DNA from: Escherichia phage LF82-1
Strand: one strand, 5' to 3'
DNA: 64,000 nucleotides
Sequence record: PV648359
The notes below the pieces were generated by a model. The model saw only the letters and a list, made by a program, of their open reading frames with translations, did not search any database and had not been told where the DNA came from. Positions 45,044 to 45,838 of the stretch are shown here, piece after piece. The position numbers and the translations under genes were made by a program. The stretch's first letter is position 1. The number at the start of each line of letters is the position of its first letter.

Positions 45044-45241
45044 TTAGCAAGAATAACTAGATGATACCCAGCCTTGAACAGTGATACTATTGTGGGATAA
45101 TGAGATCGCGTCCTGGAGATTCAGACCTGCGTTATCTTCAATCCATAATGTAACTTCTTCGCGTTCTTCTGTTGCAATTTGGAACAGGTTTTCCAGAGCA
45201 GCTACTGCCGTACGTACAGCACAATCTAATTCACGAGACAT
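45044..45241 (-). CDS. Small protein, member of a tandem paralog family (C-terminal QGWVSSSYSC)
   Basis: Shares the C-terminal WV[AS]SS..C motif with the two upstream ORFs. Confidence 0.5.
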   Translation of the reverse strand: MSRELDCAVRTAVAALENLFQIATEEREEVTLWIEDNAGLNLQDAISLSHNSITVQGWVSSSYSC

Positions 45242-45250
45242 ATGATTTCC

Positions 45251-45523
45251 TTAGCATTCCATAGAAGATGCAACCCAACCACCTGATTCGAGGCTGGTGT
45301 AATATGAGTGTTGGTTGACAGTGGCCCAATTCGGATTGCCTTGTTCGGTATAATGCTCAAGTTCTTTTTTCAAGAATCCAGGAGAATAATACGTTCCACC
45401 CATACCATAAGCTGGATACAAGTCGAATGTTGTGTTTTGTTTATCAGCAATTTCTTTGGCAGCCTCAATAGCTGCATAGATTTTTGCTACAGCTTCAGCC
45501 AGTTCGGTTTGTTCTTTAGACAT
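45251..45523 (-). CDS. Small protein, tandem paralog family (C-terminal GGWVASSMEC)
   Basis: Shares KIAD...TYY...G.WV.SS..C pattern with 45533..45838. Confidence 0.55.
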   Translation of the reverse strand: MSKEQTELAEAVAKIYAAIEAAKEIADKQNTTFDLYPAYGMGGTYYSPGFLKKELEHYTEQGNPNWATVNQHSYYTSLESGGWVASSMEC

Positions 45524-45532
45524 AATGATTCC

Positions 45533-45838
45533 TTAGCACAACGCAGAAGATGAAACCCAAGCACCTTCAGTAATAACGTATCCATTACCTTCACGCTTAA
45601 CATCGCCGCCATTATTTTCAATTTCATCTTTCATCCACTGGGATACGATTTCACCCTTAGGATAATAAGTACGACCGCTACCATAATCACCTACAGAAAA
45701 TGATACGGCATATTGGTCTGCGATCTTTGTTGCTTCTTCTTCGATACGTTCAGCTTGATTCAGAAGTTTATAAATTGCATCTGAAGCGGATTTGGCATCA
45801 TTAAACTCTGGTACTTTAATTTCAATAATCTTACTCAT
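45533..45838 (-). CDS. Small protein, tandem paralog family (C-terminal GAWVSSSALC)
   Basis: Paralog of 45251..45523. Confidence 0.55.
   Translation of the reverse strand: MSKIIEIKVPEFNDAKSASDAIYKLLNQAERIEEEATKIADQYAVSFSVGDYGSGRTYYPKGEIVSQWMKDEIENNGGDVKREGNGYVITEGAWVSSSALC

Follow-up and report, generated by a model that had tools for sequence, protein, structure and literature searches.

Three consecutive open reading frames (ORFs) of Escherichia phage LF82-1, a Mosigvirus (T4-like, Straboviridae), encode small acidic proteins of 101, 90, and 65 residues (A, B, and C) that carry the same kind of tail, a C-terminal peptide with a tryptophan, neighboring serines, and a cysteine as the last residue. 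They were analyzed in a window of 64,000 nucleotides of this genome (sequence record PV648359). Together with a predicted nucleotidyltransferase (NTase) of the DUF7277/DUF7275 type, the tail-tagged proteins very probably constitute a functional module. A preliminary description of the window had reported three consecutive ORFs of these lengths at 45044-45838 with a common Cys-terminal block, which agrees exactly with the ORF list, where all three are on the minus strand. What it missed is that the array is half of a conserved module, the NTase gene of which (43757-44713) lies outside the stretch it described.

The proteins end in ...GAWVSSSALC (A), ...GGWVASSMEC (B), and ...QGWVSSSYSC (C). A search of the window in six frames for W[VILMA][AST]S[ST]..C followed by a stop codon returned these three sites only. 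All three ORFs start with ATG and stop with TAA, and they share one reading frame, with spacers of 9 nucleotides (45524-45532 and 45242-45250). In both spacers the Shine-Dalgarno sequence overlaps the preceding stop codon (TGC TAA GGA AnC AtT ATG).

To characterize the family at large, a profile was built from 19 sequences and scored against 1.84 billion representative proteins. It yielded 535 matches at E ≤ 1e-3 (clusters at 50% identity), most of them 68-149 residues long and with the end of the profile on the final residue. Close relatives were recovered by word-indexed searches from Dhakavirus, Karamvirus, Klebsiella, Edwardsiella, and Aeromonas phages, and tblastn with the 101-residue protein matched 391 phage records. 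We examined 180 family sequences, namely 30 close homologs and 150 representatives among the matches listed. A terminal Cys was present in 165 of the 180, and about 10 more had one extra residue past the Cys; the remainder were frameshifted or truncated or had a degenerate tail. Among the 165 Cys-ending members, the Trp was conserved in 164, the first invariant Ser in all 165, and the second in 162, preceded by S, A, or P. The family consensus of the tail is G-x-W-x-[S/A/P]-S-S-x-x-C, with Cys last. The preliminary description had made its claim depend on recovery of the motif in homologs and had suggested a profile search. The motif was recovered in related as well as unrelated phages, and the search extended the tail to a large family.

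Apart from the tail, little is constant in these proteins. The only invariant residues among 105 diverse members were the Trp, one Ser, and the Cys, and the tail occurs on bodies without detectable relation to each other. The median net charge of family members is -8, and in 107 of the 165 the tail Cys is the sole cysteine. The 158 distinct tails use all six Ser codons at the two invariant serines, both TGC and TGT for Cys, and all three stop codons. Because these codons vary freely, the tail is conserved as a peptide and not as a DNA or RNA element, and a nucleic acid cause of the conservation, such as overlap with a ribosome-binding site or terminator, was ruled out. The junction past the Cys codon is stereotyped in the window and at many other loci, TG(C/T) TAA GGA nnn nnn ATG, with the Shine-Dalgarno sequence over the stop, as suits co-translation. 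This TAA-GGA overlap accounts for the preference for TAA and for the 9-nucleotide spacing, which is the commonest distance to the next start (35 of ~150 distinct junctions, from distant phages) and keeps neighboring tail-tagged genes in one frame. Some array members have a shortened tail (W-x-S-S-S-C or W-V-Q-S-S-C) and carry the motif once more inside the protein, as DW(N/Q)SSSCYGE...; such two-tag members are found at L032 2371-2631, L063 3709-3954, and L105 3432-3677.

Library searches did not assign the family to any described group. Pfam, NCBIfam, and PADLOC gave no family for the small proteins of the window, with PADLOC matches at chance level only (E about 0.01), and Pfam searches with the 105 diverse members gave scattered single chance matches and no consistent family. 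A profile search of the PDB with the family returned nothing, and the predicted fold of the small proteins had no PDB match. A full-text literature search with motif strings and with PHROG, Pfam, and DUF identifiers found nothing relevant. The entries PHROG 899, 4882, and 2141 and DUF7277/DUF7275 give no function and describe neither the tail nor the gene pairing.

The starting clue to the partner gene was a jumbo-phage contig of ~370 kb, where a two-copy array (...GGWVASSQTC and ...GRWMGSSDFC) lies two genes 5' of a DUF7275 gene. The pairing was then tested in both directions. For the forward test, 24 viral loci were fetched via the small protein, 28 with the JK42 region and three other contigs carrying the jumbo-phage member. 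A DUF7275 gene was located within 1.4 kb downstream on the same strand in 22 of the 22 loci with enough downstream DNA, and also downstream in 3 of 3 informative contigs with distant family members from the representative search. For the reverse test, viral loci were fetched via DUF7275 alone, and 73 of 80 carried between one and six ORFs upstream on the same strand that had the family profile, the tail, or both; E-values of the custom hidden Markov models (HMMs) are relative to small ORF sets, and ORF starts in metagenomic contigs were set mechanically at the first start codon past a stop. Two of the seven negative loci have variant tails (WVQSSC and WDSSTC); the regular expression for variant tails is loose, and the headline counts rest on the strict motif and the HMM. 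The strict motif was present in 150 of 1328 upstream same-strand ORFs and in none of 3455 control ORFs (0 of 1073 downstream, 0 of 2382 on the opposite strand).

When NTases of at least 70% identity were joined into lineages by single linkage, 30 of 33 lineages were positive for an upstream tail-tagged gene, a count that depends on this cut. BLAST clustering of the neighboring genes recovered the tail-tagged family in 27 of the 33 lineages and the next best family in 4. No third conserved module gene was found across these lineages. The window has the layout of the jumbo-phage contig, with the order array, 83-residue gene, NTase gene on the minus strand; the 83-residue gene is lineage-specific and lies outside the conserved module. 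In divergent phages (L024-L029, L122, L126), the small-protein gene often abuts or overlaps the NTase gene. The pairing occurs in several Straboviridae genera, in Otagovirus, Phapecoctavirus, and Acinetobacter Lazarusvirus, and in ~370-kb jumbo phages. Otagovirus phiPsa374 and Phapecoctavirus vB_EcoM-P3322 have three tail-tagged genes each, and Acinetobacter Lazarusvirus DLP2 has two to three.

The partner protein was analyzed for features of known NTases. Homologs numbered 2241 in the database at E ≤ 1e-5, and 734 phage records were matched. Residues G6, S7, D25, and D27 are invariant in both alignments examined, and E69 is invariant among 24 closer homologs. Their conservation corresponds to the signature of the polymerase beta (pol-beta) NTases, hG[GS]...DxD plus a third carboxylate. 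Further invariant residues are K125, H128, H194-D195-H198, E240-E241, and E248-R249. An AlphaFold2 (AF2) model based on the alignment of database homologs had a predicted local distance difference test score (pLDDT) of 89.4. With the motif, the third carboxylate, and a modeled minimal alpha/beta NTase fold, the 318-residue protein is a predicted member of the pol-beta NTase superfamily, and its predicted catalytic residues are intact. The only Pfam matches at E ≤ 1 were DUF7275 and DUF7277, so that DUF1814 was not among them, and sequence and profile searches of the PDB with the NTase returned no MenT. RlaP (PF10127) is an RNA-ligase-associated pol-beta NTase of phage RNA-repair systems (PMC7824862). 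It resembles the 318-residue protein in being a phage pol-beta NTase of about 320 residues; the latter has no PF10127 match, and hhalign against an RlaP sequence gave E 0.15.

Among 185,579 bacterial and archaeal species genomes (one per species), the NTase clade gave 5 matches, all on contigs of metagenome-assembled genomes; the clade is essentially confined to phages, and an origin from bacterial toxin-antitoxin systems or defense islands was rejected on this count. Cys272 of the NTase was considered as a marker of partner presence and discarded; it is absent from three partner-less short homologs, yet kept in partner-less long ones. The sequence KICTSITSGR is found in the NTases of L081, L082, L087, and L106, one lineage with no upstream tail-tagged gene. 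Other partner-less loci (L057, L063, L088) keep the usual KVCTSITSGW, and two further loci read KVCTSITSGR. KICTSITSGR may reflect co-variation or be a clade marker only.

The three proteins of the array are not equally close to each other. A and B are clear paralogs as judged from their sequences. They match in BLASTP (E 3e-5) and have a common block, (K/E)IAD...YG(S/M)G(R/G)TYY(P/S).G, in which the N-terminal similarity of the two longer proteins noted earlier was seen again. The preliminary description had counted C as a third paralog, and this part did not stand: C has no detectable BLASTP similarity to B (E 7.1) and belongs to a different PHROG (4882, not 899). A profile comparison of C with the main family by hhalign gave a probability of 92.7% (E 4e-7), with helix and tail aligned in register. 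Without the last 10 residues the match was lost (E 0.05, not significant), and C is therefore related to the main family by the tail and the N-terminal helix layout only. It appears as a third protein with the common tail and layout, for which homology of the body is not demonstrable. In the AF2 model of A (pLDDT 90.8), residues 15-43 form a long helix, which is accompanied by a small beta-sheet bearing the loop YGSGRTYY and by the tail AWVSSSALC. B has the loop YGMGGTYY and the tail GGWVASSMEC; C combines a helix with the tail QGWVSSSYSC and is without the YGxGG loop. The suggested tandem duplication and divergence thus hold for the A/B pair, and arrays of one to six copies are found in other phages.

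A comparison of substitution rates, also suggested earlier, was made within Mosigvirus. The ratio of nonsynonymous to synonymous substitutions (dN/dS) was 0-0.13 for the 101-residue gene, the 65-residue gene, and the neighboring NTase gene. The 90-residue gene exists in two alleles (window 45251-45523; L001 6552-6824; L037 3191-3463) with 77% amino acid identity and an inter-allele dN/dS of ~0.4-0.5. Since its two alleles differ while the flanking 101-residue, 65-residue, and NTase genes stay at 97.5-100% amino acid identity across the same comparison, the sequences suggest allelic replacement of the 90-residue gene by recombination.

The conservation pattern points to a role for the tail. Next to a nearly invariant enzyme the bodies diverge and multiply, and the tail alone is fixed; the tail would thus be what the constant partner sees, and from the sequences we infer that it is the interface between the small proteins and the NTase. 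Our working explanation, put forward tentatively, is that A, B, and C are the small-protein half of a phage-restricted module of the two-gene type, in which the tail couples the small proteins to the NTase. With the same reserve we suggest that the tail is bound in the active site of the NTase as an acceptor or docking peptide. One half of the module would consist of one to six acidic proteins with bodies free to diverge and an invariant tail, the other of a single highly conserved NTase encoded just downstream on the same strand. The tail would dock into the catalytic cleft, where the Ser-Ser dyad could serve as hydroxyl acceptor for a nucleoside monophosphate (NMP), an O-nucleotidylylation of the operon partner comparable to that of HepT by MntA. 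Anchoring of the peptide might come from the thiol and carboxylate of the terminal Cys, with the catalytic metals as a possible attachment site. NMP transfer to the Ser-Ser dyad appears chemically simplest because relatives of the enzyme transfer NMPs to hydroxyls and because of the MntA precedent. The variable bodies would be interchangeable cargo, either effectors that the modification turns on or off, or adaptors delivering different targets to the enzyme. Early expression of such a module during infection would serve host takeover or counter-defense, and RNA or tRNA ends are a possible target, hinted at by the relatives of the fold and by neighboring genes. More doubtful is the specific version in which the tail is the portable tag of a phage protein-modification system, with a single MenT-like NTase that nucleotidylylates or otherwise processes the tails of diversifying small effectors. 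Such processing could, for instance, activate a Ser so that a ring closes with the terminal Cys, and modification of the tails would then arm or switch the effectors in early infection.

Several observations weigh against a coupling of tail and enzyme through such chemistry. The argument that links the two is evolutionary. In the AF2 monomer of A the tail is folded, with W94-S96 as the last beta-strand and S97-L100 as a short helix (pLDDT ~88); as modeled, the tail may be an integral structural or ligand-binding element and not a docking peptide. Nucleotidylylation of Ser does not obviously need a strictly terminal Cys. For relatives of the enzyme, the known substrates are tRNA 3' ends or small molecules rather than proteins, with aminoglycosides and lincosamides among the NMP acceptors. 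Three of the 33 NTase lineages have no upstream partner within 4 kb; one of them (L063) is a counting artefact, in which a variant-tailed ORF (WVQSSC) overlaps an over-extended NTase ORF. No tail-tagged gene neighbors the three shorter (~250 residues) DUF7275 homologs that were examined in Streptomyces, Gordonia, and KVP40-like Vibrio phages. Finally, in Mosigvirus an unrelated gene and a promoter-like site separate the array from the NTase gene.

The same evidence bears on other explanations. The NTase could be toxic and shut off the host, for instance by blocking tRNA 3' ends in the way of MenT, with the small proteins, like MenA1 toward MenT1, as its stoichiometric inhibitors or timers and the tail as a pseudo-substrate plug. 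We regard this as rather unlikely, even though a small acidic gene directly 5' of the NTase gene is the order of MenAT1 (PMC10435456), a long N-terminal helix is common to the small proteins and MenA1, and the predicted fold of the NTase is MenT1-like. One inhibitor would be enough, yet it is common for arrays to hold as many as 6 divergent copies, and bodies that bind a near-invariant enzyme should be conserved, whereas these diverge past BLAST recognition and the tail alone is fixed. The small proteins had no sequence or structural similarity to MenA1, and the PDB profile search with the family was empty although a crystal structure of MenA1:MenT1 is deposited. Further, the module resides in virulent phages and not in bacterial chromosomes, and the NTase, with a median pI of 6.1, is not basic. 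Alternatively, the small proteins might be independent early host-interaction or anti-defense proteins, each with a host target of its own to bind, whose tail binds a common host factor or a metal, their adjacency to the NTase gene reflecting co-regulation in an accessory early-gene island. Their location in the early region with promoter-like sites, the variation in copy number, and the allelic replacement of the 90-residue gene are in line with this, as are anti-defense genes nearby in some contigs (Gad2 in L003, Acb5 in L126). So is their strong acidity, a property typical of many phage protein inhibitors and DNA mimics. We nevertheless consider it rather unlikely, because accessory early genes shuffle freely, yet the pairing with DUF7275 keeps order and strand across unrelated phage families with no other neighbor conserved. 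Libraries of defense-related proteins gave no match. The specific anti-defense or host-interaction role proposed in the preliminary description thus found no supporting evidence, with PADLOC, NCBIfam, Pfam, and the literature all without a match.

Two chemically different roles of the tail are unlikely. In the first, which we consider very improbable, the tail is the core of a ribosomally synthesized and post-translationally modified peptide (RiPP) on a folded leader; the NTase would activate Ser(-3) by O-nucleotidylylation, with beta-elimination to dehydroalanine, and addition of the Cys thiol would close a C-terminal lanthionine-type ring. The arrangement of several precursor-like genes followed by one enzyme would fit, as would the single Cys in most members and the invariant S-x-x-C-COOH spacing, which is that of the aminovinyl-cysteine (AviCys) ring of epidermin. 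RiPPs, however, conserve the leader and vary the core, the reverse of the tail-tagged family, and no gene for LanB, LanM, LanKC, LanD, a radical S-adenosylmethionine (SAM) enzyme, or a protease was found among the Pfam-labeled neighbors. The tail is modeled as part of the fold, and we know of no pol-beta NTase that drives dehydration. In the second, hardly credible to us, the small proteins are acyl- or group-carrier-like: the NTase would load the Ser dyad with a prosthetic group derived from a nucleotide, in the manner of CitX and MdcG on the acyl carrier proteins (ACPs) of citrate lyase and malonate decarboxylase, or the C-terminal Cys would be the site of the chemistry. In favor of this are the invariant Ser-Ser of proteins that are small, acidic, and rich in helix, and a partner enzyme of the nucleotidyltransferase class. 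There are, however, no metabolic genes conserved around the module, several divergent carriers per genome would be unusual, and neither Pfam nor a fold search indicated similarity to ACP, ThiS/MoaD, or LysW.

The features of the locus are compiled in the table below. The array lies in the early-gene region, with e/nudE on one side and the tRNA cluster on the other, and between two promoter matches, which bears out the earlier view that the proteins are early. Over the 1.7 kb around it, identity is 100% to Escherichia phage LF82-2 and 95-96% to many Mosigvirus isolates; this query matches 2-4 places per relative genome. Many Mosigvirus relatives (e.g. JK42 and ATK47) have ~240 bp of extra DNA 5' of the 101-residue gene (window ~45840-45940 versus L001 7136-7495), which gives a differently organized e.3/e.4-like gene pair. 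The search for a counterpart in T4 was negative: the positional equivalent, e.2 (102 residues), is unrelated to the tail-tagged proteins, and the 16 kb from e to gene 5 contain neither a tail-tagged ORF nor DUF7275.

Table. Features of the tail-tagged array and associated genes in the window
Feature	Position	Strand	Basis or remark
Tail-tagged small acidic protein A, 101 aa, isoelectric point (pI) 4.6	45533-45838	-	ORF list; PHROG 899, E 1.3e-22
Tail-tagged small acidic protein B, 90 aa, pI 4.7	45251-45523	-	ORF list; PHROG 899, E 7.3e-19
Tail-tagged small acidic protein C, 65 aa, pI 4.2	45044-45241	-	ORF list; PHROG 4882, E 7.7e-37
Protein A tail codons, W-V-S-S-S-A-L-C + stop	45533-45559	-	
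Protein B tail codons, W-V-A-S-S-M-E-C + stop	45251-45277	-	Stop overlaps Shine-Dalgarno sequence of protein C (TGC TAA GGA AAT CAT ATG)
Protein C tail codons, W-V-S-S-S-Y-S-C + stop	45044-45070	-	
Sigma-70/T4-early-like promoter match TTTACG-17-TATAAT, 5' of array	45898-45926	-	Consensus match only
Promoter-like site TTTACA-17-TATAGT + extended TG, gap between array and next gene	45010-45038	-	Consensus match only
83-aa gene between array and NTase gene, PHROG 3723 (no function given)	44742-44993	-	
318-aa DUF7277+DUF7275 protein, predicted pol-beta-fold nucleotidyltransferase of MenT/ANT type, PHROG 2141	43757-44713	-	
329-aa RlaP-family pol-beta NTase, predicted RNA-repair NTase	30546-31535	-	PF10127 E 6e-13

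Genes for small predicted membrane proteins flank the module at 42287-42685, 43381-43686, and 45937-46359 (all on the minus strand). The proteins end in ...ERFITECRNLR, ...ENFIKECRGK, and ...EFVKEIRCKSLN, respectively. The same C-terminal Cys-Arg/Lys motif is present in T4 (L002 5958-6320 and 5473-5628), in e.3 (...EFVIDCRKIK) and in an unannotated ORF (...NNFITECRKLK). From their sequences these flanking proteins look like a second paralog family defined by this motif. A perfect GC-rich hairpin, GGAGGACCGGAGTCCTCC, at 46924-46941, between ORFs ending at 46921 and 46950, looks like a terminator acting on both strands.

RNA-repair genes were observed repeatedly near the module. The RlaP gene of the window, about 12 kb away from the module, encodes a second NTase with no relation to DUF7275. 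Genes for Rnl1, PNKP, RlaP, or RNA ligase lie 1-5 kb from the module in several unrelated lineages (L003 2689-5478; L068; L076; L112/L130; L115; L123; L129), and in the metagenomic contig L123 (94-1352) an RlaP gene directly 5' of the tail-tagged gene overlaps its start by 4 nucleotides. These neighbors and the MenT-like fold weakly indicate RNA or tRNA-end biology as the arena of the module. As a general partner of the tail-tagged proteins RlaP was rejected; 26 of 28 loci anchored on RlaP were without a tail-tagged gene, and the other two also carry DUF7275.

Carriers of the module include many well-studied and therapeutically used groups, among them Mosigvirus, Dhakavirus, Karamvirus, Slopekvirus-like Klebsiella phages, T4-like phages of Aeromonas and Acinetobacter, Phapecoctavirus, Otagovirus, and jumbo phages. 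Pfam has no entry for the tail-tagged family, no related structure has been solved, and the literature searched contains no paper on it. Should the enzyme modify the tail, the pair would be a new post-translational modification system in phages, two DUFs and three PHROGs would gain a function, and type VII toxin-antitoxin chemistry would have a viral counterpart that is deployed offensively and on many substrates. If, on the other hand, the role of the small proteins is to hold a MenT-like enzyme in check, virulent phages would be using a module of the toxin-antitoxin type. In both cases the result matters for understanding how translation is taken over, or tRNA-directed defenses are evaded, by large phages. 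An invariant eight-residue C-terminal tag on freely evolving bodies, tied to one enzyme gene, makes for a sharp and testable hypothesis.

The module was finally compared with known systems. ThiS/MoaD with Gly-Gly, Pup, and LysW with EDWGE are small, often acidic proteins with an invariant extreme C-terminus that is used by a co-encoded nucleotide-using enzyme. Unlike these, the tail ends in Cys and not in Gly-Gly, Glu, or Gln, and the enzyme is a predicted pol-beta NTase and not E1-like or ATP-grasp. Characteristics of ubiquitin-like proteins or sulfur carriers, i.e. a beta-grasp fold, a C-terminal Gly-Gly, and an E1-like partner, were not found for the small proteins. Neither were those of lanthipeptide-type precursors, as the conservation is inverted and the labeled neighbors include no dehydratase/cyclase or LanD. 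The combination of a portable invariant C-terminal tag, multi-copy divergent partners, and restriction to virulent phages has no described counterpart in the libraries and literature searched.

In the type VII toxin-antitoxin system HepT/MntA, an NTase of the pol-beta fold nucleotidylylates a hydroxyl side chain (Tyr) of its operon partner (PMC7641770, PMC11586414). The likeness lies in a two-gene module of NTase and partner; the comparison is mechanistic only, and modification of the phage tail is a proposal. In HEPN/MNT systems the partner is a HEPN RNase, which the tail-tagged proteins are not, and the acceptor is Tyr, whereas the candidate here is Ser. The phage NTase, with 318 residues and a DUF7275 helical lobe, is also much larger than MNT. 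MenAT1 of Mycobacterium tuberculosis consists of the NTase toxin MenT1, which acts on tRNA 3' ends, and the 68-residue antitoxin MenA1, a helical V-shaped protein with a dispensable C-terminus (PMC10435456). The tail-tagged partners, in contrast, have an invariant C-terminal W-x-S-S-S-x-x-C. There is no sequence relation on either side, with no DUF1814 and no PDB sequence match, and MenAT1 is encoded on a bacterial chromosome with one partner, whereas the phage module occurs in virulent phages with one to six divergent partners. By analogy, MenAT1 is the closest architectural analogue of the phage module, and HEPN/MNT is the closest mechanistic precedent.

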